Source: an uncultured Bdellovibrionales bacterium (GTDB taxonomy: Bacteria; Patescibacteriota; Minisyncoccia; Moranbacterales; UBA11712). Taken from it: 35,067 nucleotides of DNA. The notes under the pieces were generated by a model. The model searched no databases and was not told the origin of the DNA. It saw nothing but the letters and a program-made list of their open reading frames with translations. The stretch is taken from the NCBI GenBank assembly GCA_964519445.1, contig CAZFIH010000004.1, forward strand, positions 1 to 35,067, written 5' to 3'. Numbering within the stretch: position 1 is the first letter of the stretch; the number at the start of each line of letters is the position of its first letter. Below are positions 21,266-34,963 of this stretch, one piece after another. The translations under genes were made by a program, and so were the position numbers.

Positions 21266-21269
21266 AAAA

Positions 21270-21848
21270 TTATTTTTTTATTCTTAGTATCGCCAAGCAA
21301 CCATTTATTTCCTTTTCTGAATCAATAACATTGAAACTCCTGCTCAATACGGCTTTTGCTTTGCCTGAATAAAAATCCATGTGAAAATTCAATTCCTTGA
21401 CATTTTCACGCACAAACTTCAGTCCGTTCCCTCTCGGCTCGGGTGCCCTGCCCGAAACTACTTCAGTGAAAGCAATGTTGAGAGCTTCGCGATCATCTTT
21501 CAGCTCCGGCCTAACATTTTTCAGTGTTGCCCAAACCCCCTGCCCCCTATCCGCCAAAACAATTAACAGATCGTTATAAAAATAATCATAACCAAAAAAA
21601 GTTCCCGGAATATCTCTCCAGCTGCCAAGGTTATGGTCAAACGAATTGTTTCCTATTTCGCCTGCAACGGCTGCGGCGATGTAAATCTTGTCTTCATTGG
21701 CTTTCCCGCTCTCGAGCAAATCTTTAATCATCTTTTCCAGTCTTGCCGAAAAAACATCTCTGGTTTTGCAATAATTCTTGCCGGAGACATCAACATATTC
21801 CGATTTTTCGCTAATCCATTGCCAAGCTTGCTTTGCCAAATTTTCCAT
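21270..21848 (-). CDS. Histidine-kinase-like (HATPase/GHKL) ATP-binding protein
   Basis: EIGNNSFDH (N box), ADRGQG (G1) and RGNGL (G2). No sensor or HisKA domain is visible. Confidence 0.78.
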   Translation of the reverse strand: MENLAKQAWQWISEKSEYVDVSGKNYCKTRDVFSARLEKMIKDLLESGKANEDKIYIAAAVAGEIGNNSFDHNLGSWRDIPGTFFGYDYFYNDLLIVLADRGQGVWATLKNVRPELKDDREALNIAFTEVVSGRAPEPRGNGLKFVRENVKELNFHMDFYSGKAKAVLSRSFNVIDSEKEINGCLAILRIKK

Positions 21849-22159: not shown

Positions 22160-23119
22160 TCAAAAAATCAAATTGAAACCGTAGCCGATAAAAATCATCC
22201 CAATTGCCACAACCGCAAAAAAAGCAAAGAGCAACGGCAATTTCATAACTCTTTTGAGTATCAACGCTTCCGGAAGTGAAAGTCCCACCGTCGCCATCAT
22301 AAAAGCCATAGCCGTTCCCAGCGGTATTCCCTTGGCGACCAGAGACTGAATAACGGGGACTACTCCGCTGGCGTTGGAATAAAGCGGAACGGCGAGAATT
22401 ACCGCCAAGGGAACAGCCAAAGGATTTTCTTTGGTGATGTATTTTTCAAAGAATCCTTCAGGCACATAGCCGTGGATTACCGCCCCCACTCCCACTCCAA
22501 TCAGGACATACAATCCTATTTTTTTGGTAATCACGAGAGCCTCTTTGGAAACAAGTTTTGCCACTTGCCAGGAAAATCTTTTCTTTTCCTCTTTTCGAAT
22601 GTTATCTTTGGCTTTGATTTTCCAAACATATTCCTCCACGTATTTTTCCAGCTTCAGTTTTCCCAGAATTGCTCCGCCAATCATTCCGATTAAGATTCCC
22701 GCCACTGCGTAGATCAAAGTGACTTTCCAGCCAAAAAGTCCGATAAACAGGGTCAAGGCGACTTCATTAACCAAAGGTGAAGTTATGAGAAAAGCAAAAG
22801 TCACTCCGAGCGGTATGCCCGCTTCCACAAAACCGATAAAAAGAGGAATAGAGGAACAGGAACAAAAAGGCGTAATTGCTCCAAAAATTGTCGCCAGGAA
22901 ATAATCCAATCCGAAAAATTTATGCTTGGTCAGGAAATCTCTTAGCTTTTCAATCGGCAGATAATACCGAAGCAGGCTCATGAAATGAGTGATGACAAGC
23001 AATAGTAAGATTATTTTGATGCTGTCATAGACAAAGAAATTGATTGAATCTCCCAGTCTGGTATGTTCGATAAGCCCGAAAATATTATATGTCAGCCAAT
23101 CGGCAAATTGTTGGATCAT
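22160..23119 (-). CDS. arsP: ArsP-like (DUF318) permease
   Basis: TPFCSCSSIP, FLITSPLVNE, AVPLYSNA and LSLPE motifs; last gene of the ArsR operon. Confidence 0.82.
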   Translation of the reverse strand: MIQQFADWLTYNIFGLIEHTRLGDSINFFVYDSIKIILLLLVITHFMSLLRYYLPIEKLRDFLTKHKFFGLDYFLATIFGAITPFCSCSSIPLFIGFVEAGIPLGVTFAFLITSPLVNEVALTLFIGLFGWKVTLIYAVAGILIGMIGGAILGKLKLEKYVEEYVWKIKAKDNIRKEEKKRFSWQVAKLVSKEALVITKKIGLYVLIGVGVGAVIHGYVPEGFFEKYITKENPLAVPLAVILAVPLYSNASGVVPVIQSLVAKGIPLGTAMAFMMATVGLSLPEALILKRVMKLPLLFAFFAVVAIGMIFIGYGFNLIF

Positions 23120-23140
23120 AACGATTAGATAATAAAAAAT

Positions 23141-23503
23141 TTAGTTTAATTTCAAATCTTCTTTTCGAGCTTCCAATTCTTCTCTGACTTTCGGAATGAG
23201 CTGGAAATCCTTGACTATTTCTTGGGCTTTTTCTCTGGTCTTGTCTTCTTCGGCGAAAGTGATCGCTTTGGCCGGACAAAGGTTAGCACAAGTCTGGCAA
23301 GCTACCATGCAATTATTCGGATTGGCAACTTTTGATTTTTTGTTTTCATAATCGAATTTATAAACGCCCCGCCCGCAAGAAGTAACACACATTCCGCAGC
23401 CGATACATTTATCTTCGTCCACTTCCGGATTCCATTGGATGTCTTGGCGATCCACACCGTGGAACTTGGCAAATTTCGGGTCTTGTTTTTGTTGTTCATT
23501 CAT
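23141..23503 (-). CDS. 2x[4Fe-4S] ferredoxin family protein
   Basis: CIGCGMCVTSC and CMVACQTCANLCP motifs. Start at MNEQQK. Confidence 0.9.
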   Translation of the reverse strand: MNEQQKQDPKFAKFHGVDRQDIQWNPEVDEDKCIGCGMCVTSCGRGVYKFDYENKKSKVANPNNCMVACQTCANLCPAKAITFAEEDKTREKAQEIVKDFQLIPKVREELEARKEDLKLN

Positions 23504-23525
23504 TGTTTTGAATTTAATTATTATT

Positions 23526-23837
23526 TTAATTTTTTGATCTGTCTTGTATTCCAAGAACAACTAAATTATCTAATGCTTTTATGCCTCTTATTTCATCTTT
23601 TTTCATATAAATGCTTTGATTTTTTGTTAAGGTAATTTCTCCATTAATATCAGTAAAAATTCCCTTGCCCTCAAGAACGGTTAAAAGTACAGCGTAATCT
23701 TCAGGGTGAGGCGGTATTTCCATGCCCGATTTCAAACAGATTAAAGCGGCATGAAAACCTTTAACGTTAAGAAAATGCTTTTTAATCGGTTTTTCGTCGG
23801 AAAAAATAATTTTTTCGTTTAGATTATAATTCTTCAT
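23526..23837 (-). CDS. Cupin-domain protein
   Basis: GMEIPPHP…VLEGKG cupin motif 1; 103 aa. Confidence 0.8.
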   Translation of the reverse strand: MKNYNLNEKIIFSDEKPIKKHFLNVKGFHAALICLKSGMEIPPHPEDYAVLLTVLEGKGIFTDINGEITLTKNQSIYMKKDEIRGIKALDNLVVLGIQDRSKN

Positions 23838-23843
23838 GATTTT

Positions 23844-24374
23844 TTAAATTTCGTTAATTTCAAATTTTTTATCTCGCAAATACCACTGCATAAAATATCC
23901 GACGGCGATAAATAGCGGCAGGGCAACCAGTGTTCGCGCGAGCGTGAATTTCAATCCCAGATAACCGATTTCAATGCCGAGCATAGGAATTTTAAGCGAT
24001 GAAAAAGCGCCCAGATAAATGAAAATATTTTTGATGCTGGCGCCTTTTTTGTAGAGAATGTAGGCCACCGGAAAAGCGCCGTAAAGAGGGCCCGCCTGAA
24101 GCATCGCCAAAATGATAACGGTGAAAATCCCTTTTATGCCGGAGTCTTGGCCGATATGTTTTTCTATTTTCTCTTTGGGAAACCAAACATCAAACAAACC
24201 GACAATGATAAATAAAAAAGGAATAAAGGTGATCATTTCAATAAATGACTCGGTGAAACTTTGGTAGATAGTTTTGCCCGGATCAAAACCAAATGAAAAA
24301 GAGCCGATAGCAAAAATCGCAAAGCTGAAAAGCCAAATATAAGGTTTTATTTTTTGCAAGTTTTTTTTGGTCAT
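23844..24374 (-). CDS. Small permease subunit (DUF318-like half-transporter)
   Basis: IEKHIG, AGPLYGAFP…KKGA and KIPMLGIE; paired with the adjacent half-size permease. Confidence 0.75.
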   Translation of the reverse strand: MTKKNLQKIKPYIWLFSFAIFAIGSFSFGFDPGKTIYQSFTESFIEMITFIPFLFIIVGLFDVWFPKEKIEKHIGQDSGIKGIFTVIILAMLQAGPLYGAFPVAYILYKKGASIKNIFIYLGAFSSLKIPMLGIEIGYLGLKFTLARTLVALPLFIAVGYFMQWYLRDKKFEINEI

Positions 24375-24853
24375 AAAATGATTCCGATTAAAATCCCGAT
24401 AATGATCGCTACGATAAAATTCAAGGCGTTTCTTAAGATCGCCACTTTTTTGCCGAAATACTTGATTTCCAAAGGCAAAGTGACAACACCGACCATCATC
24501 AGTGTCGTCATAAAAACTGCGACTGTAGAATAGGACGCGCCTTGCTTCAAGAGACCCGAAGCGATTGGATAGGAAATAAATCCGGGGATAAGAGTGATTG
24601 AACCGATAATCGCGGCAATCGCAAACCCGATTGCTCCCGAACCGACACCTAAATATTTCACGATCATCTGCGGCGGGACGATAAACAAAAGCAAACTGAC
24701 CAAAATCAAAATATTTAAAAATGGGATAACGATATTCCTGAACATTTTCCAGCCTTTCTTGAATCCTAAAATCGTCCTTTGTCTGTCCAGTAAGAATGAA
24801 ACCAAGCTGGTGAATATTGAAAAAGATATAAATATTAAAGCGTTATTCATCAT
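24371..24853 (-). CDS. Small permease subunit (DUF318-like half-transporter)
   Basis: IVKYLG, GSITLIPGFISYP…GA and TLPLEIKYFG; 4-nt overlaps with both neighbours. Confidence 0.75.
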   Translation of the reverse strand: MMNNALIFISFSIFTSLVSFLLDRQRTILGFKKGWKMFRNIVIPFLNILILVSLLLFIVPPQMIVKYLGVGSGAIGFAIAAIIGSITLIPGFISYPIASGLLKQGASYSTVAVFMTTLMMVGVVTLPLEIKYFGKKVAILRNALNFIVAIIIGILIGIIL

Positions 24854-25566
24854 AAACTAATTAAAAATTTTACAAGATATTGCGTATAGTATGCACCCGC
24901 CAAAAGAAAAATTGTTGCTACGCCGTATCGCATCACTTTTTCAATCTTTCCCATCGCGTTATACATCTTGCCCACTTTCTCCACACTGAACGCCAAAACA
25001 ATGGAAAAAATAATAACCGGTAAACCCGTCCCCAAGGCAAAAAGCGGCGGCAGAAGCAGACTTTCCGTCGATGAAAGAACCAACGGAACAAGCATCCCAA
25101 AGAATAAAACCCCGCTATAAGGACAAAATGCCAGAGCGAACAAAACTCCCAAAAGCAAGGTGCCGATGTGTCCTTTGGTTGCGAGCCACTCTTTCATTTT
25201 TTCCACCTTCTCGCTTTTTGAACCGAAGTTTATTTTAATCACCCCGAACATTACGAGAGAAATAAAAATCAGAACTATCCCCAAAACTTTGTCGCCCCAG
25301 CCCTGAAAAATGCCGGCAATCTGAAATGAAGAAAGTCCGAAATAAATTAGTGTCGCCAAAAGCGTATAACTTATTCCCCTGCCAAGGGTATAAATGAGAC
25401 CGCTGATGAGAGTGTGTTTGGCGGTTTTGATGTCTTTGGAAATGTAGGCGATAGCGGTGATGTTGGTCGCCAAGGGGCAGGGACTGATCGAGGTCATCAC
25501 GCCCAAAACAAAAGCGGAAAGAAGCGGAATATTATATTGGTCAATTAAGGTGTTTAGAAACTCCAT
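24850..25566 (-). CDS. arsG: ArsG-family (CcdA/DsbD-like) membrane protein
   Basis: SISPCPLATNITAI, YTLGR, LAFCPYSG and GTGLPV motifs. Confidence 0.8.
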   Translation of the reverse strand: MEFLNTLIDQYNIPLLSAFVLGVMTSISPCPLATNITAIAYISKDIKTAKHTLISGLIYTLGRGISYTLLATLIYFGLSSFQIAGIFQGWGDKVLGIVLIFISLVMFGVIKINFGSKSEKVEKMKEWLATKGHIGTLLLGVLFALAFCPYSGVLFFGMLVPLVLSSTESLLLPPLFALGTGLPVIIFSIVLAFSVEKVGKMYNAMGKIEKVMRYGVATIFLLAGAYYTQYLVKFLISL

Positions 25567-25600
25567 AATTTTTTCAATTTAATTATTTATGAATTTGTTT

Positions 25601-25858
25601 TTATGACAATGCCCTAAAAAGGTCAGCCGGACTAAAACCTATCACTCTTATATCTTTATCCTTCAGAAATTTAGTCAGTTCTTTATCTATGGAATCAATC
25701 TTTTTGCCGGATAAGAAATTTTCTATTTCAATAACCGCTTCTTCCGGATGAATAAAAAAATCTCCATTGATCGTAATTTTTTCAATCTCTGAATTATCGA
25801 TTCCGACTTTAATTCTTAGCAATTTACCGTTGGGTATTTTGTAAATTATTTTTCTCAT
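25601..25858 (-). CDS. Lipoate-protein ligase accessory (C-terminal) subunit, LplB-like
   Basis: KIPNGKLLRI and ITINGDFFIHPEEA motifs; adjacent to the ligase catalytic domain. Confidence 0.85.
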   Translation of the reverse strand: MRKIIYKIPNGKLLRIKVGIDNSEIEKITINGDFFIHPEEAVIEIENFLSGKKIDSIDKELTKFLKDKDIRVIGFSPADLFRALS

Positions 25859-25859
25859 A

Positions 25860-26615
25860 TCATCTCCAATAATTCCATTTATTACTGGTATATTTTTCTT
25901 TAAATAATCTATCGGCCTCTTTCAGCTCATCGGCCGTCAATTTTCCCCGAGTAATGGTTGTTTCAAAAACTTTTCGGAAGCCTTTCGTTAAGCTTCTCTC
26001 CAGCTCCTGACAAGAAATTTTACGCCCTAATTCTTTTTTTAATGAAGTAACCCGCTCTTCGACCGTCCGGATCAATTTGTCTTTTATTTTTTCATCCGGA
26101 ACTTTCAACACGGAAAACATTTTTTCCACATCGATATCCGTCAAAATAGTACCGTGTTGCAAAACTACTCCTGCTTTTCTGGTTTGAGCATTACCGGAAA
26201 TCTTTTTTTCACCGGCTAAGATATCATTTATCGGCTTAAATTTTGCCTTAATTCCCAACAAATTCAAACCTTCAATAATCCCGGCGCAGATTTGCCCATA
26301 AGATTCCACCACATCACTCGAAACTTCTTTTTCTGAAATCACCAAAGAATAAGTCAATTCACCCTCGTGAAAGACCGCGCCTCCCCCCGTATATCTTCTC
26401 ACCGCATCAACTCCCAACTCTTTGGCTTTGGCGACATCTACTTCTTCTTTTAAGTTTTGGAAAAATCCCACACTGACACAAGCCGGCTTCCACCTGTAAT
26501 ACCTCAACGTGTTCGGGACTTCTTTTCTGATGCGAGCCGCGAGAATGGCTTCATCAACAGCCATTTGCATCGCCCCCCTCGTTTCTATTGTTTCTATTGA
26601 TCTCCATTGGTTCAT
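25860..26615 (-). CDS. lplA: Lipoate-protein ligase catalytic domain (LplA-N/LipM family)
   Basis: MAVDEA, VRRYTGGGAVFH, NDI…KKISGNAQ and LQHGT motifs. Confidence 0.9.
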   Translation of the reverse strand: MNQWRSIETIETRGAMQMAVDEAILAARIRKEVPNTLRYYRWKPACVSVGFFQNLKEEVDVAKAKELGVDAVRRYTGGGAVFHEGELTYSLVISEKEVSSDVVESYGQICAGIIEGLNLLGIKAKFKPINDILAGEKKISGNAQTRKAGVVLQHGTILTDIDVEKMFSVLKVPDEKIKDKLIRTVEERVTSLKKELGRKISCQELERSLTKGFRKVFETTITRGKLTADELKEADRLFKEKYTSNKWNYWR

Positions 26616-27460
26616 GAACTTCCAGCAAAATTTTTAGCCTTATATGAGCTTCTGACCAAACTCCCCGCAACAGCCTTTTTTATTCCCAGCTTTTTTGCGA
26701 TTGACGCGATTTTTCCAAATTCATTCTCCCTGTAATATTTTTTTACCGAGAGATGGGACGAGCTTGGCCGTAAATATTGGCCGACCGTTAAGATATCGCA
26801 GCCTGTTTTTTTCAAGTCTCTTAATGTTTCAATGATCTGCTTCTCTGTTTCTCCCATTCCCACCATGAAACCCGACTTGGTTTTCATCTCGGGAGAGATC
26901 TCTTTGACTTTTTTGAGCAACCTTAAAGACATTTCGTAATCCCCTTTTGGCCTGACCGACCCGAAAATATCGGCAACGGTTTCCAGATTATGGTTAATGA
27001 CATCCGGCCCTGCTTTCACTATCTTTGCGAGAACCGGCCAATTGCCTCGCAAATCGGAAATCAAAATTTCAATTTTGCATTCAGGAGATTTTCTTTTTAT
27101 TGCTTTAATCGTCTTGACAAACTGCCCTGCTCCGCCGTCCGACAAATCATCCCTGGCAACACAAGTTATCACCGCGTAATCAAGCCCCATCCTTTTGACA
27201 GCGGCCGCGATTCTTTCCGACTCGGCTGAATCAACCGCCTTGGGTTGTCCCTTTTTAATATTGCAGTAAGCGCAATTCCGAGCGCAGACATCGCCCAAAA
27301 TCATAAAGGTGGCGGTGCCGCAAGAAAAACATTCGTAACGATTGGGGCAGTTGGCTTCCTGACAGACCGTAACCAAGCTGTGCTTATCAATAACATCTAA
27401 TGTTTCTTGATACCGCTTTTTGTCATAATTTTTTATCCTTATCCAATCAGGCAAAGTCAT
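26612..27460 (-). CDS. lipA: Lipoyl synthase (radical SAM)
   Basis: CQEANCPNRYEC (CX4CX5C), CARNCAYC, RDDLSDGGA, NHNLET, GQYLRP and RSSY. Confidence 0.96.
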   Translation of the reverse strand: MTLPDWIRIKNYDKKRYQETLDVIDKHSLVTVCQEANCPNRYECFSCGTATFMILGDVCARNCAYCNIKKGQPKAVDSAESERIAAAVKRMGLDYAVITCVARDDLSDGGAGQFVKTIKAIKRKSPECKIEILISDLRGNWPVLAKIVKAGPDVINHNLETVADIFGSVRPKGDYEMSLRLLKKVKEISPEMKTKSGFMVGMGETEKQIIETLRDLKKTGCDILTVGQYLRPSSSHLSVKKYYRENEFGKIASIAKKLGIKKAVAGSLVRSSYKAKNFAGSS

Positions 27461-27464
27461 AGTT

Positions 27465-27734
27465 TTATGAAAACACTGTATTTATTTCTATTAATTCAAT
27501 CATTGCCTCATAAGTTGTTTCTTTTGCCCCGGCATTGTTTTTCAATCCGCGTAAAACCAAATCATTTTTCAAAACTAAAATTTCCATTTTTTTGTCTGCG
27601 GCTGATTTTATTAAATTATTATTTTGATTGTGGACAAGCAAAGTTCCATCTTGAATGAGAATAATTTTATCGCCTTCTTCCATGAACCGAAAAATTCCTT
27701 GGTTTTGATTGTTTGATTTGACTATAAAAAGCAT
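27465..27734 (-). CDS. DsrH/TusB-like protein
   Basis: ILIQDG and DLVLRGL motifs; third gene of a DsrEFH-like trio. Confidence 0.8.
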   Translation of the reverse strand: MLFIVKSNNQNQGIFRFMEEGDKIILIQDGTLLVHNQNNNLIKSAADKKMEILVLKNDLVLRGLKNNAGAKETTYEAMIELIEINTVFS

Positions 27735-27738
27735 GGTT

Positions 27739-28092
27739 TTAAAAATTAATAATGACCTCGGACGATCTGACCAAATTTTTTATTTTCAGAACGGAAAGGA
27801 TTTTTACCGGTTCGATTTCCTCTTCTGAAATTCTATTTTCCTGCAAACTCTCCTTGTCCGCAAAAATTTTTAAGCCAAATTCTTCGGCGTTAGACAGGCC
27901 TTCTTTAATACTGCCGGCGCCAATCTTTTCCGGCTTTTGATTTTTCAACAAAGAAAAAACGCCCGATCCGCTGAAAAGAAGCTTTGTATCCAGATCCATG
28001 CCGGAAAAAGCAACGCCGGCCCGCACCGCTTCGGCCGGGAAAACAGTGCCGATGGGCGGATTATTTACGATTATCAAAACTTTTTTTGCCAT
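27739..28092 (-). CDS. DsrF/TusC-like protein (no Cys)
   Basis: PPIGT…EAVR, GVFSLLKNQ and ESLQENRI pattern. Confidence 0.78.
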   Translation of the reverse strand: MAKKVLIIVNNPPIGTVFPAEAVRAGVAFSGMDLDTKLLFSGSGVFSLLKNQKPEKIGAGSIKEGLSNAEEFGLKIFADKESLQENRISEEEIEPVKILSVLKIKNLVRSSEVIINF

Positions 28093-28103
28093 ATATTTTA
28101 TGG

Positions 28104-28448
28104 TTAGATATTAATAAATTTATCGCATTCATTTACCATGTCAGCCAGTCCAGGCAGGCCCTCAAGCTCGCCCGCCGGCAGCAGCTGATTGCGCTTTATA
28201 CCGCGGAATTGCACGCAGACTCCGCAAATCTTAATCTCCGCGCCTAAGCCGGATAATTCTTCCATCCTTTGATATAAATTTCTTTCTTTTGACGAATTCA
28301 AATCCTTATTTACGGCGATAACACTATCTATGTAAAGAAAAATTTTCACCTGATGTTTTTTAGCGATTGCCGCCTTGCTTAAATAATAAAGAGTATCAAT
28401 GTCTTGGTATGTATAAGGCGGCCGTGTGACTAAAAATCCTATTGTCAT
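28104..28448 (-). CDS. DsrE/TusD-like sulfurtransferase
   Basis: RPPY, IFLYIDSV and ICGVCVQFRGI with the conserved active-site Cys. Confidence 0.85.
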   Translation of the reverse strand: MTIGFLVTRPPYTYQDIDTLYYLSKAAIAKKHQVKIFLYIDSVIAVNKDLNSSKERNLYQRMEELSGLGAEIKICGVCVQFRGIKRNQLLPAGELEGLPGLADMVNECDKFINI

Positions 28449-28462
28449 ATTTTTTATGTTTT

Positions 28463-28527
28463 ACCCTGTTAGAAATTTTAAATAAAGCAGAAAAAAATAA
28501 TAAAATGCCTAAAATTTCTAACAGGGT
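28463..28527. repeat. 18-bp perfect inverted repeat
   Basis: ACCCTGTTAGAAATTTTA (28463-28480) / TAAAATTTCTAACAGGGT (28510-28527), with a 29-nt spacer. Confidence 0.9.
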
Positions 28528-29552
28528 TAATTGTTTCTAATAAATAAAAAGTAAGCCATAGTCCAGCCGCCGAGAATTATAAAAATACCCGCCACTAGAC
28601 TGGAGATGGCTAGTTGTGGAATACCGCTTAAAATATGGCCGATATTGCAGCCGTCGGCAACAACCGCGCCGAACCCCATCAAAACGCCGCCGGCCAAAGA
28701 TTGCCAGGCTATCCTAGGCCTTGGGAAACGGAATTTAAATTCCCCGGCAATAAACGAACCCAAAAATGCGCCAAAAACAAGGCCTATCACCTCAAACGAT
28801 TCCCATGTTAAAAAATTTTCGAAACGGATGATTGATTTCAAAATCGTTTCAAAACCCATGGTTATACCGAGGGCATAGTTGCGCCCGGAAAGGGAAGAAA
28901 AAACGAAAGCCAAGAGTCCAATGAGCCCGATAGCTAATCCGGCGCTTTGCCATGACCAGCCTTTTTTAAAAATATCAGATATCAAACCGACCCTTTCGTC
29001 TTTTGGGACGGAATATTTAATTTTGTTTCTTTTTTGTCCAAACAATAACCAAAAAATTAAAACTGAAAAAAAGGCAATCCAAAATATATTCGGCAAACCG
29101 GTTATAGAGCCCAGAGTCAAAGAACCTAAACCATAACTCTGGGCGACTGCGGTCAATCCGGATAAAATTCCGTCCTTAGCCAGATAGGCCGCGCCGACAA
29201 ACCCGAACAAAGCCAGCCAAGAACCTATCATTCCTTCCCCGACTCGATAAGCAGTGCCGCTGGCGCAACCGCCGGCTATCGCCATCCCCACCCCAAACAC
29301 ATAAGCGCCCAGAGGCACGGCCAGCCAATAAAACAACTTTGGGTTATATTCTATTAATCCAATAGAATTAAGAACATAAAATCCAACCAATTCAATCCCA
29401 AGAGCCAAGCCAACCGCCTTGAGCAGTGTAAAATCTTTAAAAACTAAAGGATCGCGAAACGCTGAATTCATGCAAAAACGTCCCCGCTGGAGCGCAAATC
29501 CGAAAATAACTCCAATTGCCAAACCGCTAATAATTGTAAAAACCATTGGCAT
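28527..29552 (-). CDS. YeeE/YedE family sulfur-compound (thiosulfate) transporter
   Basis: QRGRFC, AGGCASG and DGCNIGH: the three conserved Cys motifs. Confidence 0.92.
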   Translation of the reverse strand: MPMVFTIISGLAIGVIFGFALQRGRFCMNSAFRDPLVFKDFTLLKAVGLALGIELVGFYVLNSIGLIEYNPKLFYWLAVPLGAYVFGVGMAIAGGCASGTAYRVGEGMIGSWLALFGFVGAAYLAKDGILSGLTAVAQSYGLGSLTLGSITGLPNIFWIAFFSVLIFWLLFGQKRNKIKYSVPKDERVGLISDIFKKGWSWQSAGLAIGLIGLLAFVFSSLSGRNYALGITMGFETILKSIIRFENFLTWESFEVIGLVFGAFLGSFIAGEFKFRFPRPRIAWQSLAGGVLMGFGAVVADGCNIGHILSGIPQLAISSLVAGIFIILGGWTMAYFLFIRNN

Positions 29553-29559
29553 AGGACGA

Positions 29560-29814
29560 TTATTTAACTTGTATCAAAAGACGATGATCCGGTCCATTAT
29601 CAATTTTTTCCAACTTCAAAAATTTGTGCCCTTCTTTTTCACTGTTTCGCGGAATGCGCTCCAAAGACAAGGGATAATCGGTTAAGACCTCTAAAATTTG
29701 GCCGGAGCTCATTTCCTTTAATTTTTTTCTGGCCTTAATGTCTGGATAGGGGCAGATTTCCCCGCGAACATCCAGACTCTCGTCAATTTGGCAAGCATTT
29801 TTATCTTCAGTCAT
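29560..29814 (-). CDS. TusA/YeeD/SirA family sulfur carrier
   Basis: LDVRGEICPYP and GQILEVLTD motifs. Start at MTEDK. Confidence 0.9.
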   Translation of the reverse strand: MTEDKNACQIDESLDVRGEICPYPDIKARKKLKEMSSGQILEVLTDYPLSLERIPRNSEKEGHKFLKLEKIDNGPDHRLLIQVK

Positions 29815-29836
29815 ATTTTTTATTGTTATTTTTTTA

Positions 29837-30301
29837 TTAAAGCTTGGTCCCCGGATCCGTACAGTCCTGCTCAACGCAAAGCTTGATTCTGGCTTCCATT
29901 TCCGCTTTCATGCCGTTAGAAAATCCGACGAACGGCTCTCCTTCGCCAATAAAAGTCGTCGGAACGCCTTGCGCGGTTGTGCCGTAAGCCTTTGCCATCT
30001 CTTGAAAAAGCGCGGCGTTATCCTTGCTTTTCCAGGTTTCAAATTCTTTAACAGCCAAATCGGGATATTTACGCTTCATCTCATCCAAAAATGGTTTCTC
30101 AGTCGCGCAATGCGGACAGCCGTCTCCCCAGAAAAAATATATCGTCACTTTGCCTTCAGTGTCACTAATTTCGGCAACCTGATTTTCCTCCGAATAAGCA
30201 CTTTCCAATGATGTGTTTTCTTTCCGGTTTTCGGAAGAACAGCCGGAAAAAATGAGAAGTACTCCCGCCAGCAATCCTATTGATAAATAAATTTTTTTCA
30301 T
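29837..30301 (-). CDS. Thioredoxin/glutaredoxin-like lipoprotein
   Basis: Lipobox FSGC, WGDGCPHC and GVPT cis-Pro loop. Confidence 0.85.
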   Translation of the reverse strand: MKKIYLSIGLLAGVLLIFSGCSSENRKENTSLESAYSEENQVAEISDTEGKVTIYFFWGDGCPHCATEKPFLDEMKRKYPDLAVKEFETWKSKDNAALFQEMAKAYGTTAQGVPTTFIGEGEPFVGFSNGMKAEMEARIKLCVEQDCTDPGTKL

Positions 30302-30311
30302 AAAACCAAGT

Positions 30312-30728
30312 TTACTGATTATCGTTATTTTTCTTCATGCCTGAATCCACCCACTTTTGAGCCTCATCAGCCTTTAACAATTTTTGAACCTCTGATTGAT
30401 CGGAAATTTTTATTTTGGCGATCCAGCCCTCATCATACGGACTTTTGTTGATAACAGAAGGCTTGTCAAAAAGCGGGTCATTAACTTCAATTACTTCTCC
30501 GGAAAGCGGGCTTCCCAGATGGCCGCTCCATTTAAGCGCTTCCAGAGAAACATAAGTTTCTCCCCTTTTAAGCGCCTGTCCTTCTTTCGGTAACTTGATA
30601 AACACGAATTCCTTTACCTTGTCCGCGGCGGGTTTAATTACGCCCAGCACCGCAGTGTCATTCTCGATGCGCGCCCAAGAATAGTCCCTGTTATAAAATA
30701 AATTATTCGGCAAATTATTGTTTGTCAT
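30312..30728 (-). CDS. GcvH-like lipoyl carrier protein (stand-alone)
   Basis: YSWAR, FIKLP, LEALKW (lipoyl-Lys position), SPLSGEVIEVN and INKSPYDEGWI. Confidence 0.88.
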   Translation of the reverse strand: MTNNNLPNNLFYNRDYSWARIENDTAVLGVIKPAADKVKEFVFIKLPKEGQALKRGETYVSLEALKWSGHLGSPLSGEVIEVNDPLFDKPSVINKSPYDEGWIAKIKISDQSEVQKLLKADEAQKWVDSGMKKNNDNQ

Positions 30729-30731
30729 AGA

Positions 30732-32525
30732 TTATTCCTTATTTTTGTTAATAATATCATTTTGTTCGCCAGTATTATTTTCACTTTCTTTTGATGCCTC
30801 GGGCGTGAGCAAATTTTCTTCCGTGCCAACTTTAACTCCAAATCTTGGCAGAATTTTGCGGTGGATGAACAGAATCAAAAGAGAAACAGCAATCGCAACA
30901 ACAAAAACCAATAAAGAAGTGCTTATATTATTCATCAAATCCGGATTAATAAACATTACCAATGCCAGCGCCAGCATAATCATACCGCCGATTAACTTCA
31001 GGATGCGCCCGTGTTTTTCTTCAAAACGGCTTGCTTTCAGCGTTAAGGTGGCAGCTCCCACAACTACCATCTCATCTAAAAGGTAAATCAAAAGATATAA
31101 CAATAAAAGCAAAGCAAAGACTGTTCCTTGTATATGATTTTGGGCGATTATATTAGTCCAGATTACCGGAAAACCGGCTGTGCAGGGAAGTTCTACCAGC
31201 ACCACACCCAAAGCCATAGCGGCTGTGGCAAGCACCATTCCCCAGGTTGATTTGTCGCCTTTCATAATACCCCGCGCGTCTTTAAATATTTTTGGCTTAT
31301 ATTTGTCGGATATCGTAAAAGATATACCTTTTTTATACCAAAAATAATCTTTAATATTAACAAGGGCAAAAGTAAGAGCAAGCAGGGCCACTGCGATTTG
31401 AATCCATCTTAAATAACCGATATACAGGAATACGTTCAAAAGCCCAACCATAAACAAACCGTAAGCGATCGTGGTTACCAAAAGAAAGGTTAGGCCGACC
31501 AAAAATATTTTCTTTCTTGAGCCGGAATGAATCACCATTCCCAAAAGAAAAGCAATCAGCCACAAAGAACAGGGATTAAAACCGTCAACAAAAGCGATAA
31601 TAACCGTTGTTACAAAAAGCGGCGTAGAGGAAAGATCAATTTCGCCCACAATCGGAAATTTTATTTTTTCCTGCGCTTCGGGAGTGATATCTGTTGATTG
31701 GGGCAAAAAAGGAGTAAATCCTTTAATATTTTCCAACGGACAAATGCAACCTTCTTTTTGGCACGAAATTATTTCCCTTTCCAAATAATCTTTGATTGTT
31801 GTTTCTCCTATATAATATCTGTCGCCTAAAAATACAATCGGATAAGAAGCTGTTACCAATCCATATTTTTCTTTAAATGATTGATATAACCGATTCTCTT
31901 CCTCAAGCCCGACATCGTGCTTTTTTATAATTAAGCCGTATTTTTGTTCCAGGTTTTGCAGAAAATTACTTATATCCGAGCATTGGGGGCAGTCTTCTTT
32001 ATAAAACAAGTGCAGACAAAGTTCATCCCGGGCTTGATTTGACTGAGAATCAATATTTTCTTTTTCGTCGAATTCTTTGTTTGATGTAATAGAAGAAATT
32101 GCCGACTCCGGTTCCGTCTCTTCTTCAATTCCGGCTTTTACCCCGGGACTGATACAGCCATTTTCCAAACAATCAACTATCTTTTTTTCAATATCCTCCG
32201 CCATATAATCGGCGTAACCGACGATTGGCTCAAAGTCCCCGATAAAAGTTGTCGGCACTCCCCGGGCATGGATGCCGTATGCCTCGGCGACTTCTTGGAA
32301 TAATTCGGCATTTTCTTGGTTGTTCCAAGTTTCAAAACTTTTTACTTCCAAATCAGGATATTTTTCTTCCATTTTTTCCAAGAATGGTTTTTCCACGGCG
32401 CAGTGAGGGCAACCATCGCCCCAGAAGAAATATATCACTGTTTTCTCCGCGGCACTTACCTGATTTATTCCAACTAATAAGCAGATGAAAATCAGGATCG
32501 AAATAATTATTTTCTTAGTGAGCAT
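30732..32525 (-). CDS. Two glutaredoxin-like domains fused to a CcdA/DsbD-like membrane domain
   Basis: Signal peptide; CPHC and CPQC domains; DGFNPCS and ELPCTAG transmembrane Cys pair. Confidence 0.85.
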   Translation of the reverse strand: MLTKKIIISILIFICLLVGINQVSAAEKTVIYFFWGDGCPHCAVEKPFLEKMEEKYPDLEVKSFETWNNQENAELFQEVAEAYGIHARGVPTTFIGDFEPIVGYADYMAEDIEKKIVDCLENGCISPGVKAGIEEETEPESAISSITSNKEFDEKENIDSQSNQARDELCLHLFYKEDCPQCSDISNFLQNLEQKYGLIIKKHDVGLEEENRLYQSFKEKYGLVTASYPIVFLGDRYYIGETTIKDYLEREIISCQKEGCICPLENIKGFTPFLPQSTDITPEAQEKIKFPIVGEIDLSSTPLFVTTVIIAFVDGFNPCSLWLIAFLLGMVIHSGSRKKIFLVGLTFLLVTTIAYGLFMVGLLNVFLYIGYLRWIQIAVALLALTFALVNIKDYFWYKKGISFTISDKYKPKIFKDARGIMKGDKSTWGMVLATAAMALGVVLVELPCTAGFPVIWTNIIAQNHIQGTVFALLLLLYLLIYLLDEMVVVGAATLTLKASRFEEKHGRILKLIGGMIMLALALVMFINPDLMNNISTSLLVFVVAIAVSLLILFIHRKILPRFGVKVGTEENLLTPEASKESENNTGEQNDIINKNKE

Positions 32526-32543
32526 ATTTTTATTTTGAATTGC

Positions 32544-33197
32544 TTACAAAGCAGAGTTGATTTCGGCTATTATTTCCGCGTTGCATTCCGAAGGACAATA
32601 AAGAGTCGGCTGTCTGGACAGTCTCACTCTTTCTCCGCTCCCTTCTAAAAGATGAACAATATCAGCCCTGGAATAATCCGTATTCTCCCAAGATGTAACC
32701 GCTATGCCTTTTTCAAGATATTGATAAATGTCATTGACTTTTTCTATTTTTTCAACCGGAAAACTGTTTTTAATCAAATCAACATCCAAGTCCGTATAAA
32801 TCTGATAGTCTTTTAATTCACTCTCTTGGATAGAAAATTCTTGGGAACCGATAAATGAAAATCCTCTGTCGATTACCACTCCTTCCATCCGCGGCTCGTT
32901 GTATTTCAGTGTCCGGCCGGCCAACACAAAATCTGCTCGTTTGTTTTCCATCAACTCAACGCTTTCGGATGTGGATCGAGTAGCAATAATTTGATATTTT
33001 TGGGAATCTAGCTTTTCGGCTATCTCCCGGCAAGTCGGGCAAGCGGCAATGATTATTTTCCTTCGCGTTTTATCAATATTATTATCAATCGAGCTTATTT
33101 CGTTTTCTTTTTCTTTATTTTTGCCGATAACAATCAGCAAAACAAAGGCTGACAAAATAAGAAGTGAAATTATTTTAGTTTTATCCAATCGTAGCAT
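32544..33197 (-). CDS. Hypothetical exported protein with CPTC motif, possible type-II binding-protein fold
   Basis: N-terminal TM, ACPTC, STSESVELMENKRADFVLAGR and C-terminal CPSEC. 1-nt overlap with the upstream gene. Confidence 0.65.
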   Translation of the reverse strand: MLRLDKTKIISLLILSAFVLLIVIGKNKEKENEISSIDNNIDKTRRKIIIAACPTCREIAEKLDSQKYQIIATRSTSESVELMENKRADFVLAGRTLKYNEPRMEGVVIDRGFSFIGSQEFSIQESELKDYQIYTDLDVDLIKNSFPVEKIEKVNDIYQYLEKGIAVTSWENTDYSRADIVHLLEGSGERVRLSRQPTLYCPSECNAEIIAEINSAL

Positions 33198-34018
33198 TAA
33201 CTTATTTTTTGTTTAAAAAAATCAATGATGTCTTTTTCATTTGTGTGGCATTTTCCATCCGCCCAGAGAAACGGGACGCCGAATGATTCCAGATCGACGT
33301 CGCACTGCATCGCGTCGTTGCCCAGCTGTTCCAGATCGGCTTCGCTTTCGCTGATGTTTTTTTCTTCAAAATCAAGTTTGTCTCTCACGCCGTTTTGCTG
33401 GAAATACTTTTCAATGTTGGCGCAACCGGGGCAATTATCACCTGAATAAAAAGTAATGTCCTCGCTTTCCGGCTCTTTTTGCGCTTCCGCCGATACCGTT
33501 TCGCCAATCATTCCGCGTATTTTCTCCGAAAGATAATCGGAAAAAGCCTGCTTGTTTCCCAAAAGCCTCCACGCTTGCACCTCTTCCCTGATATTATCCT
33601 CACCGTCAATAATGGCGTTCAAAAAAAGTGATGAACCGACCGCTTTGAATTTCTTCGCCACCTCCCTATTTTCCGGCAAATCGACGTTGATCTCCCGAAA
33701 TTCAATTTTTCCGTCTTTGAGTTCCGGCGCGAAGTTTTCGTCAACCGTCGCTTTGGCATATTGCCCCATTATTACGCAGGCATAACAGCGAGCAGTCGAA
33801 TGAAAGGCGTAAACTTGGACTTTTTCCGCCGGCTTAGTCTCTTGAGCTTCGGATTTTTGCGAACTTTTTTGTGTATTGGAATCACTTGACTGCGTTTTTT
33901 TGTCCGGACCAAAATTGGCGTAAATAACGGCAATAGCTGCTATCAAAACGGCGCCGTAGAGTAAATATATTCCTAATTTTTTCACCCCGTTAGAAATTTC
34001 TTTTTTGTTGTTTTCCAT
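33197..34018 (-). CDS. arsF: ArsF-family thioredoxin-fold protein with an extra C-terminal glutaredoxin domain
   Basis: VYAFHSTARCYAC…INVDLPEN…GSSLF, then YSGDNCPGC…GVPFL. Start at MENNKK. Confidence 0.72.
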   Translation of the reverse strand: MENNKKEISNGVKKLGIYLLYGAVLIAAIAVIYANFGPDKKTQSSDSNTQKSSQKSEAQETKPAEKVQVYAFHSTARCYACVIMGQYAKATVDENFAPELKDGKIEFREINVDLPENREVAKKFKAVGSSLFLNAIIDGEDNIREEVQAWRLLGNKQAFSDYLSEKIRGMIGETVSAEAQKEPESEDITFYSGDNCPGCANIEKYFQQNGVRDKLDFEEKNISESEADLEQLGNDAMQCDVDLESFGVPFLWADGKCHTNEKDIIDFFKQKIS

Positions 34019-34064
34019 AATTTTCAGATATTTCCCCGTTATATTTGGCAATTTCTAACGGGGT
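33984..34064. repeat. 15-bp inverted repeat enclosing the arsF start codon
   Basis: ACCCCGTTAGAAATT (33984-33998) / AATTTCTAACGGGGT (34050-34064), with an internal partial copy CCCCGTTA at 34034. Confidence 0.9.
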
Positions 34065-34070
34065 AAATGA

Positions 34071-34334
34071 TTATTTGGAAAGGATAGATTTGATTTCTTC
34101 CACATCGGGAATTCTTCCCGAAGCTTCAACTTTTTCATCAACGACCAAAGCCGGCGTTCCCATTACGCCGTAGCTCATAATATCCTGGATTTCGGTTACT
34201 TTTTCAATATCCGCTTTCATTTTCAATTCCCCTAACGCTTGCCTCGTGTTGGCTTCCAGTTTTTGGCAATTGGGACAGCCCGTTCCCAAAATTTTGATGG
34301 TCACCCCGTTAGAAATTTTTTTATCATCTGGCAT
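34071..34334 (-). CDS. Small redox-active disulfide protein (MTH895/Thioredoxin_3 family, ArsE-like position)
   Basis: IKILGTGCPNC and YGVMGTPALVVD motifs. Confidence 0.88.
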   Translation of the reverse strand: MPDDKKISNGVTIKILGTGCPNCQKLEANTRQALGELKMKADIEKVTEIQDIMSYGVMGTPALVVDEKVEASGRIPDVEEIKSILSK

Positions 34335-34385
34335 ATATTTTATTTACTACAAATCCCGTTACAAAAATAGAATTTCTAACGGGGT
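34303..34385. repeat. 15-bp inverted repeat enclosing the thioredoxin start codon
   Basis: ACCCCGTTAGAAATT (34303-34317) / AATTTCTAACGGGGT (34371-34385), with an internal partial copy CCCGTTA at 34355. Confidence 0.9.
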
Positions 34386-34393
34386 TCATAGAT

Positions 34394-34612
34394 TTATTTG
34401 GTTAATTTTATCGGATTGCATAAATTTTCTTTCTTATTTGCCAGCCTTCCACAGCAACGGCAGACATATTGCGGATTATTCACCAATGGAAGTATTTTAT
34501 CCATATCGAACTGATTATGCGGCTTGGCAAGCTCACAAAGTTTGTTTTCCCTATTGTTGTTCCCGCAACCGCAACCGCAGGAACTGCTAGTATCGCAACA
34601 ATTGTTTGCCAT
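34394..34612 (-). CDS. Small Cys-rich protein (10 Cys in 72 aa)
   Basis: CC, CGCGC, LC, CRCC and LCNP; starts 4 nt after the arsR stop. Confidence 0.75.
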   Translation of the reverse strand: MANNCCDTSSSCGCGCGNNNRENKLCELAKPHNQFDMDKILPLVNNPQYVCRCCGRLANKKENLCNPIKLTK

Positions 34613-34616
34613 AAAT

Positions 34617-34928
34617 TCAGTCTTTGATTATTTGATTGAATAAAGCCTTGTATTGCTTCAGGACTTTTTGATTGACGCTGTAAATAATGAAGGCGCTTTC
34701 TTTTCTTTTTTCAAGCAAGGATAGTTTTTCCAATTTAGATAAATGGTGGGAAACCAAATTCTGCGGCAACTCCAACACTCCGAAGATTTCACAAACGCAA
34801 AGCTCCTTCTTCGTCAGAAGGCACAAAATCCTCAAACGATTGGTGTCCGAGATTGTTTTCAGAAATTCCTTTAGCTCAAGGATTCCTCGCATCCCACCGG
34901 AACCTTTCCCACAGCAATATTTGGCCAT
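34617..34928 (-). CDS. arsR: ArsR/SmtB family transcriptional repressor
   Basis: SDTNRLRIL, ELCVCEI, QNLVSHHLSKL helix-turn-helix, and an N-terminal CC pair. Confidence 0.92.
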   Translation of the reverse strand: MAKYCCGKGSGGMRGILELKEFLKTISDTNRLRILCLLTKKELCVCEIFGVLELPQNLVSHHLSKLEKLSLLEKRKESAFIIYSVNQKVLKQYKALFNQIIKD

Positions 34929-34934
34929 AATGAA

Positions 34935-34963
34935 ATAATATCAACGCTCATTGATATCGTCAA
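34935..34963 (-). promoter_or_regulatory. Sigma70 promoter with overlapping ArsR-type operator
   Basis: TTGACG-17nt-TATTAT (TG-extended), 6 nt before the ATG. Perfect 7-6-7 inverted repeat ATATCAA-N6-TTGATAT at 34938-34957. Confidence 0.85.

Follow-up and report, generated by a model that had tools for sequence, protein, structure and literature searches.

A GcvH-like lipoyl carrier encoded beside a membrane thiol-disulfide protein in Patescibacteria and DPANN archaea: candidate parts of a transmembrane redox relay

Introduction

Lipoic acid is the swinging arm of a few metabolic complexes and, more recently, of the pathway named sHdr (for sulfur-oxidizing heterodisulfide reductase-like), which oxidizes sulfur. 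We analyzed a 35,067-nucleotide (nt) stretch of DNA, called the window here, which is the whole of contig C4 (CAZFIH010000004.1) of the Patescibacteria genome GCA_964519445.1 (G000; 992 kb in 90 contigs, completeness 98.7%), a member of the candidate phyla radiation (CPR). It carries a 22-gene operon that encodes a GcvH-like lipoyl carrier, its lipoylation enzymes and, directly upstream of the carrier, a 597-amino-acid (aa) membrane protein with outward thioredoxin domains. We propose that the operon encodes a transmembrane thiol-disulfide relay that is driven by the lipoyl protein and, in this genome, switched on under thiol-reactive stress, and consider this reading about as probable as all others taken together. 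The relay would tie cytoplasmic redox chemistry to the chemistry of cysteines outside the cell, with the lipoylated GcvH-like protein as the cytoplasmic dithiol carrier.

Among the closest described systems are the reductant relays of the DsbD/CcdA/ScsB group, which include E. coli DsbD, ScsB-ScsC and the pneumococcal CcdA-Etrx lipoproteins (PMC3322552, PMC3914529). As far as these accounts describe them, the systems share with the operon a two-cysteine membrane domain that joins the cytoplasm to outward thioredoxin-fold domains and thioredoxin lipoproteins. In DsbD and ScsB, as here, the outside thioredoxin-like domains are fused to the membrane domain, and Scs shares a link with metal or oxidant stress. 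The difference lies on the cytoplasmic side: the known systems are described as fed by cytoplasmic thioredoxin, whereas here the conserved neighbor in the cytoplasm is a GcvH-like protein, lipoylated and equipped with a ligase and synthase of its own and, in relatives, with an NAD(P)H reductase. That is, thioredoxin fills for DsbD, CcdA and ScsB the role that we propose for the lipoyl carrier. In addition, the membrane domain of the operon gave no direct match to a Pfam DsbD model and, with a structure model of moderate confidence, no significant match to a solved fold.

The sHdr-LbpA system of Hyphomicrobium denitrificans and other organisms (PMC6067878, PMC11094781, PMC10332631) resembles the operon in gene content. 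The clusters are reported to include YeeE, TusA, DsrE-type proteins, the lipoate-binding protein LbpA, a ligase and an ArsR-type repressor (PMC11094781, PMC6067878, PMC11582611, PMC12423496). Going by these reports, both have a GcvH-like lipoate-binding protein without a role in glycine cleavage, a dedicated two-part ligase with a lipoyl synthase, sulfur transferases (TusA and DsrE-type proteins), an importer resembling YeeE and a repressor of the ArsR type. In contrast to those clusters as reported, sHdr genes were not found in G000, the synthase is a canonical LipA and not LipS1/S2, and the sulfur transferase is DsrEFH and not DsrE3. Moreover, only 3/46 genomes with the carrier also have the sulfur genes, and its conserved partner is instead the membrane thiol-disulfide protein.

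In the mycobacterial relay, electrons pass from the NADH flavoprotein Lpd to lipoyl-DlaT, then to AhpD and the peroxidase AhpC. A flavoprotein, a lipoyl carrier and an AhpD-like protein likewise occur together in eight loci related to the window. The lipoyl protein of the mycobacterial relay is a metabolic E2, whereas the carrier here is free-standing in genomes without 2-oxoacid dehydrogenases, and the window itself contains neither the flavoprotein nor AhpD. The arsEFG genes are reportedly organoarsenical resistance genes, in work attributed to Chen, Zhang and Rosen (2019). Genes 3, 4 and 17 of the operon likewise pass the NCBIfam ArsE, ArsF and ArsG cut-offs under an ArsR; unlike ArsEFG, the ArsF here has an extra glutaredoxin-like domain and the three genes are parted by an 8.5-kb lipoyl/sulfur block. 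The ArsEFG work is cited in PMC9144182. A further comparison is the GcvH-L/LplA2/SirTM operon of Staphylococcus aureus and streptococci (PMC12440151, PMC4518038). It reportedly holds a non-metabolic second GcvH paralogue with its own ligase and a link with oxidative-stress resistance; the present operon differs in having no sirtuin or macrodomain and no E2 complex to receive lipoate, and in having a membrane partner and de novo synthesis by LipA.

A literature search turned up neither a published connection between lipoyl proteins and membrane proteins of the DsbD type nor a description of a lipoyl-GcvH/DsbD-like operon in CPR bacteria or DPANN archaea; the gene tables of CPR and DPANN surveys, which the search did not cover, may mention these genes.

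Results and discussion

A lipoyl carrier without a classical client

The operon comprises 22 minus-strand open reading frames (ORFs) running from 34928 to 22160 (~13 kb), all co-oriented. The intergenic spacing, from the ORFs as listed, ranges from -38 to +78 nt, and the widest gap lies between YeeE and DsrE. Family assignment was made with Pfam and NCBIfam models and their cut-offs. The genes at the center of the argument are as follows.

30732 to 32525, minus strand: 597-aa membrane protein with a signal peptide, a thioredoxin-like domain (CPHC), a thioredoxin/glutaredoxin-like domain (CPQC) and a membrane domain
30312 to 30728, minus strand: GcvH-like lipoyl carrier, lipoyl lysine K66 (PF01597, 115 bits)
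29837 to 30301, minus strand: thioredoxin-fold lipoprotein, lipobox FSGC and active site CPHC as read from the sequence
26612 to 27460, minus strand: canonical lipoyl synthase LipA (NF004019, 390 bits; TIGR00510, 348 against a cut-off of 310)
25860 to 26615, minus strand: LplA large subunit, which with LplB makes up a two-part lipoate-protein ligase (PF21948, 182 bits)
25601 to 25858, minus strand: LplB (NF053749, 71 against 65)

LipA carries the CX4CX5C, CX3CX2C and RSSY motifs, and the thioredoxin lipoprotein and the first (CPHC) domain of the 597-aa protein are paralogues, with 58% identity.

The carrier is the sole GcvH in G000 and the sole lipoyl-type domain there above the Pfam cut-off; a scan with PF00364 gave only a 19-bit match, under the cut-off. 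In the same genome we did not find GcvT (PF01571), the E2 catalytic domain (PF00198), the E3-type dimerization domain Pyr_redox_dim (PF02852) or the HdrB-type CCG domain that marks the sHdr core (PF02754), and the sole Pyr_redox_2 gene is TrxB-like, on contig C65. The original prediction, made from the letters of the window, had noted that it contains no GcvP/T/L, 2-oxoacid dehydrogenase or sHdr gene; for GcvT, E2, the E3-type domain and sHdr this absence extends genome-wide at 98.7% completeness, GcvP not having been searched. Because GcvT, E2, the E3-type domain, the CCG domain and a second lipoyl protein were not found in G000, the lipoylation genes appear to serve only the GcvH-like carrier.

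We considered whether this is ordinary lipoate metabolism, i.e., a GcvH for glycine cleavage or for 2-oxoacid dehydrogenases encoded elsewhere, with its neighborhood formed by chance. The carrier scores 123 against the cut-off of 117 of the NCBIfam GcvH subfamily NF002270, and G000 is split over its 90 contigs, both of which would suit this explanation. However, the carrier falls under the cut-off of the equivalog model TIGR00527 (101.6 against 115.85), neither an E3-type domain nor another lipoyl domain was found in G000, GcvT occurs in 0/28 carrier-bearing genomes (G000 included) and E2 in 1/28, and the gene order is kept across two domains of life. We therefore regard this explanation as extremely improbable.

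A protein search with the carrier returned ~80 proteins at 50-82% identity, followed by a fall to ordinary GcvH at 45% or less. The sources of the close group include Patescibacteria, Aenigmatarchaeota, Nanoarchaeia and Woesearchaeota; the nearest relative (82% identity) bears the NCBI name "Patescibacteria group bacterium". By these comparisons, the carrier is a member of a tight clade common to CPR bacteria and DPANN archaea. K66 is invariant in the 36 sequences of one carrier alignment (A1) and in the 31 clade members of a second (A2), and the clade motif is EA[LVI]KWSGH. A2 served as the clade profile for genome and metagenome scans. Among 151 relatives of G000 it matched three, namely G000, G483 and G507; the latter two belong to the same order as G000 in another family, and 0/18 same-family genomes matched. 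In the DPANN sample, made up of 401 genomes from the phylum to which a Woesearchaeota genome belongs, it matched 45 at an E-value of 1e-25 or better, two of which are unpublished and without which the count is 43. Among the 80 loci kept from the metagenome scan, five were members of the clade, and the others were set aside as ordinary GcvH genes.

LipA is rare in the phylum of G000: among 401 sampled genomes of that phylum, seven, including G000, pass the TIGR00510 cut-off. The other six Patescibacteria carry LipA-LplB-LplA only, with a GcvH nearby in some. A separate scan of genome contigs with LipA gave 14 loci, the best from Thermoplasmata and Woesearchaeota; these had LipA-LplB-LplA without other genes of the operon and were set aside.

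A membrane thiol-disulfide protein beside the carrier

We compared 28 loci: the window, those of G483 and G507, 20 DPANN genome loci and five metagenome contigs. In 26/28, the gene directly upstream of the clade GcvH encodes a homologue of the 597-aa protein; these comprise the window, G483, G507, 18/20 DPANN loci and 5/5 metagenome loci. In the two exceptions, G723 and G789, the homologue lies on another contig. Each of the 36 genomes in the DPANN sample whose membrane-domain match reaches 289 bits is also one of the 45 carrier genomes. When the one unpublished membrane-domain genome is left out, the same profile gives 35/35, the carrier genomes then numbering 43.

Two cysteines of the membrane domain are invariant in alignment A3 and lie in predicted helices: C43 in an NPC motif and C172 in an LPCT motif. 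The domain aligned by hhalign with a 236-aa paralogue encoded on contig C21 of G000 (probability 99.7, E 6e-26), and this paralogue passes Pfam DsbD_TM (PF02683; 30 against 27.1) and DsbD_2 (PF13386; 28 against 24.9). We conclude, with moderate strength, that the membrane domain is a divergent DsbD/CcdA-type domain. All 24 full-length loci encode a thioredoxin unit with CP[HF]C on the outside, which is a fused domain in some and a lipoprotein in others. A complex prediction for the membrane domain (A3) with the carrier (A2) scored 0.01, which speaks neither for nor against binding. As a separate observation, many of the weaker membrane-domain matches in DPANN genomes were reported with in-frame TAA, TAG or TGA codons.

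In the relay that we propose, LplA and LplB would load octanoate or lipoate onto Lys66 of the carrier and LipA would insert the sulfurs. The dihydrolipoyl arm and the membrane cysteine pair in the DsbD-related domain would then exchange electrons, which would pass on to the outward thioredoxin domains (CPHC and CPQC) of the 597-aa protein and to the CPHC lipoprotein.

The opposite direction of flow has to be weighed here. The oxidase DsbA has CPHC as its classic motif, and CPHC is also the active site of 18/24 fused proteins and of 14/15 lipoproteins with an intact active-site region. The CPHC proteins might thus form disulfides in secreted proteins, with electrons crossing the membrane domain and ending on the lipoyl disulfide. 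The flavoprotein (with NAD+ as acceptor) or sulfur compounds would re-oxidize the lipoyl group, in a quinone-free substitute for DsbB/VKOR. VKOR was not found in five module genomes, DsbB not having been searched. To our knowledge, these lineages are reported to be without quinones and respiratory chains, which would suit such a substitute, as would the fact that E3-type flavoproteins normally oxidize dihydrolipoyl groups. An oxidative role is possible on these grounds. However, electron flow onto the lipoyl group would be uphill because lipoamide is far more reducing than DsbA-type proteins, and we know of DsbD-family proteins only as importers of reductant. In addition, an AhpD-like protein in eight loci fits a reductive, peroxidase-type relay, and CPxC proteins such as DsbG and ScsC are described as kept reduced by DsbD/ScsB (PMC3322552). 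Taken together, we judge the oxidative direction unlikely, clearly so.

A variable slot between the carrier and the lipoylation genes

ORFs were clustered at 27 of the loci, L053 being excluded as too short. The recurring genes were as follows.

LplA: 22/27 loci
CoA disulfide reductase (CoADR)-like flavoprotein: 20/27 loci, including a 60-aa remnant in G507 and a split copy in L185
LipA: 15/27 loci
LplB: 14/27 loci
217-aa protein: 10/27 loci
AhpD-like CMD protein: 8/27 loci, alongside the flavoprotein
DUF169: 4/27 loci

The position between the carrier (with its thioredoxin lipoprotein) and LipA/LplA, which we call the slot, varies in content. Most loci have the flavoprotein there; others have AhpD with the flavoprotein, DUF169 alone or with the flavoprotein, or TusA-YeeE-DsrE-DsrF-DsrH. 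The flavoprotein has Pyr_redox_2 and Pyr_redox_dim domains and a CoADR-like cysteine. It is not merely a helper of LipA, as it is kept in ~8 loci that lack LipA. Signs of decay were seen in two copies: in G507 (L139 12994-14154) the flavoprotein is the 60-aa remnant and LipA is missing, and in G741 (L185 5289-6633) it is split into two ORFs of 198 and 252 aa.

In the window, where no homologue of the flavoprotein or the AhpD-like protein was found anywhere in G000, the slot holds the sulfur relay.

29560 to 29874, minus strand: TusA/YedF-like sulfur carrier with a CPYP motif (PF01206, 72.8 bits); the likely start is the ATG at 29814
28527 to 29552, minus strand: YeeE/TsuA-type transporter of sulfur compounds (thiosulfate) (PF04143, 279 bits; NF052577, 284, under the cut-off of 400)
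28104 to 28448, minus strand: DsrE, subunit of a TusBCD/DsrEFH-type sulfur relay
27739 to 28092, minus strand: DsrF, subunit of the same relay type
27465 to 27734, minus strand: DsrH, subunit of the same relay type

The same genes occupy the slot, in the same order and never with the flavoprotein, in G616 (L175) and G870 (contigs C80 and C73), and the TusA proteins share 73-80% identity with that of the window. YeeE occurs in 3/46 carrier-bearing genomes (G000 and 2/45), both other copies lying inside the module. G616, a DPANN archaeon, has the order membrane thioredoxin protein, GcvH, thioredoxin lipoprotein, TusA, YeeE, DsrEFH, LipA, LplA, LplB, and continues with a ferredoxin (43% identity), a cupin (81%), ArsE, ArsF, ArsG and a permease. 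G870, a second archaeon, carries the sulfur-relay version over two contigs. The original prediction held that recurrence of such a gene combination in unrelated taxa would support it, and the combination does recur: as a near-complete composite in G616, as the sulfur-relay version in G870, and as ars genes with the lipoyl core in G507.

In most relatives, the CoADR-like NAD(P)H flavoprotein would recharge the lipoyl group, sometimes with the AhpD-like protein. In the window, the lipoyl group is most likely coupled to an imported sulfur compound, since the sulfur relay holds the reductase slot there, as it does in the two archaea. Persulfide or thiosulfonate sulfur on TusA/DsrE might be resolved by, or loaded from, the lipoyl dithiol; that is, the lipoyl group would either reduce sulfane sulfur bound to TusA/DsrE or be reduced at the cost of sulfide. 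It had also been predicted that YeeE-TusA-DsrEFH supplies sulfur to LipA. LipA does follow DsrH directly in 3/3 sulfur-relay loci, but the relay is missing from 12/15 LipA-bearing loci, YeeE occurs in only three carrier-bearing genomes and the relay sits in the reductase slot, which favors a redox or sulfane-sulfur partner of the lipoyl group over a sulfur supply for LipA.

A further explanation is that the whole module belongs to sulfur metabolism in the manner of sHdr-LbpA, with the lipoyl protein and TusA/DsrE acting on imported thiosulfate or sulfane sulfur and yielding sulfide for biosynthesis or detoxifying polysulfide; the membrane thioredoxin proteins would handle sulfane sulfur outside the cell. 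YeeE, TusA and DsrEFH, a carrier like LbpA, a ligase dedicated to it and a repressor of the ArsR type all accompany sHdr clusters. The slot flavoprotein elsewhere is of the CoADR type, a group that includes NAD(P)H persulfide and polysulfide reductases, and among the listed holders this DNA was found only in microbial-mat metagenomes. Meanwhile, neither sHdr (CCG domain) nor DsrC was found in G000, YeeE is as rare as stated, and the core conserved without any sulfur transferase would be left unexplained. In addition, sulfane-sensing repressors of the SqrR/BigR type have a C-terminal second cysteine, which the ArsR of the window lacks (BigR model, 38 against a cut-off of 155). We rate this explanation as a minority one, although it deserves serious attention.

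Returning to the lipoyl-driven relay, the carrier has no metabolic client, stands in a fixed position beside a DsbD-type protein and is followed in most genomes by an NAD(P)H disulfide reductase and in some by AhpD. These properties are explained most simply if the lipoyl dithiol acts, on the cytoplasmic side, as redox partner to the membrane protein. Besides the oxidative alternative, several points weigh against this account. First, weaker relatives of the membrane domain occur in 218/401 DPANN genomes (E 1e-20 or better), many without any GcvH; the family as such, being common in DPANN without GcvH, therefore needs no lipoyl partner. Second, the membrane domain itself has no Pfam match and no significant PDB sequence match, Foldseek against the PDB gave nothing at E 0.001 or better for a model of moderate confidence (predicted local distance difference test, pLDDT, 69), and hhalign of A3 against the ArsG/DsbD_2 alignment was not significant. 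Since there is no direct Pfam, PDB, fold or ArsG-profile match, the DsbD kinship depends on the one paralogue. Third, DsrC/TusE, the usual acceptor of DsrEFH, was not found in G000, the window version has no identified enzyme that would recharge the lipoyl group, and the chemistry of its sulfur relay is a guess. Fourth, related genomes are not independent samples. Finally, all electron and sulfur transfers, the direction of flow and the inducer are steps that we infer from the observed gene content, conserved order, co-occurrence and absence of classical lipoate enzymes; the listed holders of this DNA are four DNA runs from one microbial-mat study, with no RNA run among them.

A more specific version would make the lipoyl group a hub that couples an environmental sulfur compound to outside disulfide chemistry in cells without a respiratory chain. 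Sulfide, thiosulfate or polysulfide would enter through YeeE and be handled as persulfide by TusA/DsrEFH. We consider this version rather unlikely. If it is true, a minimal sulfur redox pathway, linked to lipoate and independent of sHdr, would replace both the NAD(P)H reductase and quinone-dependent systems, and would have been exchanged between DPANN archaea and CPR bacteria on a 13-kb cassette.

Ars-type genes and regulators

The operon opens with ars-type genes and closes with a second group of them.

34617 to 34928, minus strand: ArsR/SmtB-family repressor, 103 aa (HTH_5, 49 bits; NF033788, 78.5 against 55)
34394 to 34612, minus strand: 72-aa cysteine-rich protein with 12 cysteines, no family
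34071 to 34334, minus strand: MTH895/ArsE-family thioredoxin-like protein, CPNC (TIGR00412, 108.9 against 62), probably cytoplasmic
33197 to 34051, minus strand: membrane-anchored ArsF-family domain (CYAC) with a fused glutaredoxin-like domain (CPGC) (NF040494, 112 against 60); the likely start is the ATG at 34018
32544 to 33197, minus strand: 217-aa extracytoplasmic, membrane-anchored protein with an invariant Cys-Pro-Thr
24850 to 25566, minus strand: ArsG-family DsbD_2-type membrane protein with membrane cysteines in SPCP and FCPY (NF040495, 288 against 200; PF13386, 69.8 bits; alignment A4)
24371 to 24853 and 23844 to 24374, minus strand: two half-size ArsP_1-family permeases (Pfam ArsP_1)
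22160 to 23119, minus strand: full-length ArsP_1-family permease with an FCSCS motif (PF03773, 211 bits)

The repressor passes HTH_5 and NF033788 and has an N-terminal Cys-Cys and, in the alpha-3 region, a C-V-C motif, i.e., the metalloid-type cysteine site. C-V-C is typical of metalloid- and soft-metal-sensing ArsR/SmtB proteins. ArsR homologues occur in six loci, with C[VA]C in 6/6, and a further tblastn match lies in G811. ArsE homologues occur at L139, L175, L178 and L186, and the ArsF homologues at L139, L175 and L186 are lipoproteins carrying CxxC; no homologue of the 72-aa protein was found by tblastn at any related locus.

A sigma-70-like promoter lies just upstream of the repressor gene.

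34935 to 34963, minus strand: TTGACG-17-TATTAT with TG, 10/12 matches

This site is joint-best among 34 promoter-like sites, against an expected number of 27.0 +/- 5.2. The inverted repeat ATATCAA-N6-TTGATAT (7-6-7) at 34957-34938 overlaps it and is a candidate ArsR operator; a comparable repeat, ATATCAAT..ATTGAT, lies 5' of the ArsR gene of G507. Upstream of arsR, 139 nt remain before the contig ends. Thus, the original description of 22 co-oriented, closely spaced genes with one promoter/operator agrees with the ORF list, the spacing and the promoter scan, and almost all of its family labels were upheld by Pfam and NCBIfam, the 72-aa and 217-aa proteins being without a family.

The 217-aa protein (alignment A5), which had been called a CPTC protein and has no match in Pfam or NCBIfam, was modeled with AlphaFold2 (AF2) at a pLDDT of 83. 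The model has a type-2 periplasmic-binding-protein fold. Foldseek against the PDB matched it to phosphate-binding and LysR/OxyR effector domains at E ~1e-7 with low TM-scores (0.29-0.36), and the ESM Atlas gave a PhnD-like lead (0.89). With its invariant cysteine, it would be a probable client or sensor of the relay.

The original mechanism was that the lipoylated carrier is an inducible decoy or shuttle that brings As(III) or methylarsenite to ArsP-type permeases. In its favor are the C-V-C motif of the repressor, the ArsE, ArsF and ArsG models passed by window proteins above the NCBIfam cut-offs, the three ArsP_1-family permease units in the operon, and the position of LipA directly after DsrH in all three sulfur-relay loci. 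Moreover, an ArsE/F/G/permease cassette stands next to the lipoyl core in G507, G616, G811 and G913 as well as in the window; in G507, a related CPR genome, ArsR-ArsE-permease-ArsF-ArsG is joined to the core. However, 23/28 loci have the lipoyl core without the cassette, and the constant neighbor of the carrier is the membrane thiol-disulfide protein (26/28, as against 5/28 for the cassettes). The sulfur relay, which that mechanism needs for LipA, takes the disulfide-reductase slot and is missing from most LipA loci, as described above. In G000, Acr3 (TIGR00832) was not found, ArsB not having been searched, nor was ArsC of the low-molecular-weight (LMW) phosphatase type (PF01451), the glutaredoxin-coupled type (PF03960) not having been searched. 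The full-length permease matches at the level of the broad Pfam family, the NCBIfam SaoE and SO_0444 models both being under their cut-offs, and the names ArsE, ArsF and ArsG are used here as NCBIfam labels only. What speaks specifically for arsenite binding by a dihydrolipoyl arm is the C-V-C motif and the family name of the permeases. The comparison thus points elsewhere, and we find the arsenic decoy, which the proposed relay does not need, improbable.

By domain logic, ArsE, ArsF and ArsG here look like a thiol relay rather than a nitroreductase and pump. ArsE (a cytoplasmic thioredoxin), ArsG (a DsbD_2 membrane protein) and ArsF (an outside CxxC protein) would form a second relay, parallel to that of the lipoyl carrier and with the same layout, while the ArsP_1 permeases would move a thiol-reactive solute. 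ArsR would switch the set on upon exposure to a thiol-reactive agent, for example a soft metal, a metalloid, sulfane sulfur or an oxidant.

The candidate regulators differ among loci, yet each bears cysteines. In 15 DPANN loci, a ~170-aa membrane-anchored winged-helix protein (DUF7343, 28 bits) with a CxC at the membrane is encoded directly upstream of the module, and it is a candidate membrane-bound thiol-sensing transcription regulator. Examples are as follows.

L178, 12198 to 12722, minus strand: winged-helix CxC protein
L179, 12033 to 12575, minus strand: winged-helix CxC protein
L183, 12132 to 12635, minus strand: winged-helix CxC protein

The loci of G483 and G507 have a two-component system. 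The C-V-C of ArsR, the CxC of the winged-helix proteins and the presence of two-component systems suggest that thiol-reactive stress is the inducer, without singling out arsenic.

Origin of the operon and its meaning

A quick maximum-likelihood tree was built from the carrier, the membrane domain and LplA (26 rows, midpoint root), with support from the Shimodaira-Hasegawa-like approximate likelihood ratio test (SH-aLRT) only. The three CPR loci and one metagenome contig form one clade (98). Its sister is a DPANN clade with G616 among its members (96), and the two are nested within wider DPANN diversity. At 0.402, the G+C content of the operon block equals the minimum among 159 windows of 12.8 kb across G000 (mean 0.447, sd 0.015). 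The tree nesting, the carrier frequencies (45/401 DPANN genomes against 3/151 relatives of G000) and the low G+C of the block fit a transfer from DPANN archaea into one CPR order, with the root of the tree not established. Mis-binning of the contig was considered and rejected: a sigma-70 factor, an M23 gene and a peptidoglycan-binding gene lie on the same contig, and the module of G483 sits on a 1.3-Mb contig.

A complete lipoylation kit is retained in ~1-Mb genomes of CPR bacteria and DPANN archaea that lack the enzymes classically served by lipoate, beside one membrane thiol-disulfide protein, and this points to a use of lipoic acid that we have not found described. If the carrier feeds the membrane protein, it would be a third link from the cytoplasm to extracellular cysteines, besides thioredoxin and quinones. 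The relay would then operate in organisms that are attached to other cells and rely on their surface proteins. It would also suggest a function, open to testing, for part of the ArsE/F/G and ArsP_1 families, about which little is understood, document operon-sized gene exchange between two groups of ultra-small prokaryotes, and offer a small system that could be expressed in E. coli for study.

Other genes of the operon and its surroundings

Two further genes lie between the half-size and full-length permeases.

23526 to 23837, minus strand: small Cupin_2 protein (23.4 bits, under the cut-off of 27.2)
23141 to 23560, minus strand: 2x[4Fe-4S] ferredoxin, with its G616 homologue in the same position; the likely start is the ATG at 23503

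The cupin is 81-82% identical between CPR and DPANN copies (L141 10883-11200; L175 3305-3625), as against 23-73% for the other shared operon proteins. In G483 and G616, a 67-72-aa DUF4405 membrane protein is encoded after the cupin.

Half-permease pairs comparable to that of the operon occur elsewhere in G000, on contigs C21 and C57. On C21 (L195, 3761-6044), the 236-aa two-cysteine DsbD_TM/DsbD_2-type membrane protein is part of a second, smaller cluster, which also holds a NifX-like Nitro_FeMo-Co protein, two half-size ArsP_1 permeases and a DUF134 DNA-binding protein. As this cluster repeats the pairing, a DsbD-type protein and split ArsP_1 permeases stand together twice in G000.

On the 3' side of the operon, on the same strand and past a 311-nt gap, a 192-aa protein of no family and an 89-aa STAS-like DUF4325 protein are encoded (20996-21848). 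The same contig also carries a P-type (E1-E2) ATPase and an HlyD-ABC-MacB/FtsX export set (window 403-2538 and 13017-16122). In G483 (L141 14123-17152), the same export set, at 35-61% identity, lies a few kb from the module, on its opposite side.

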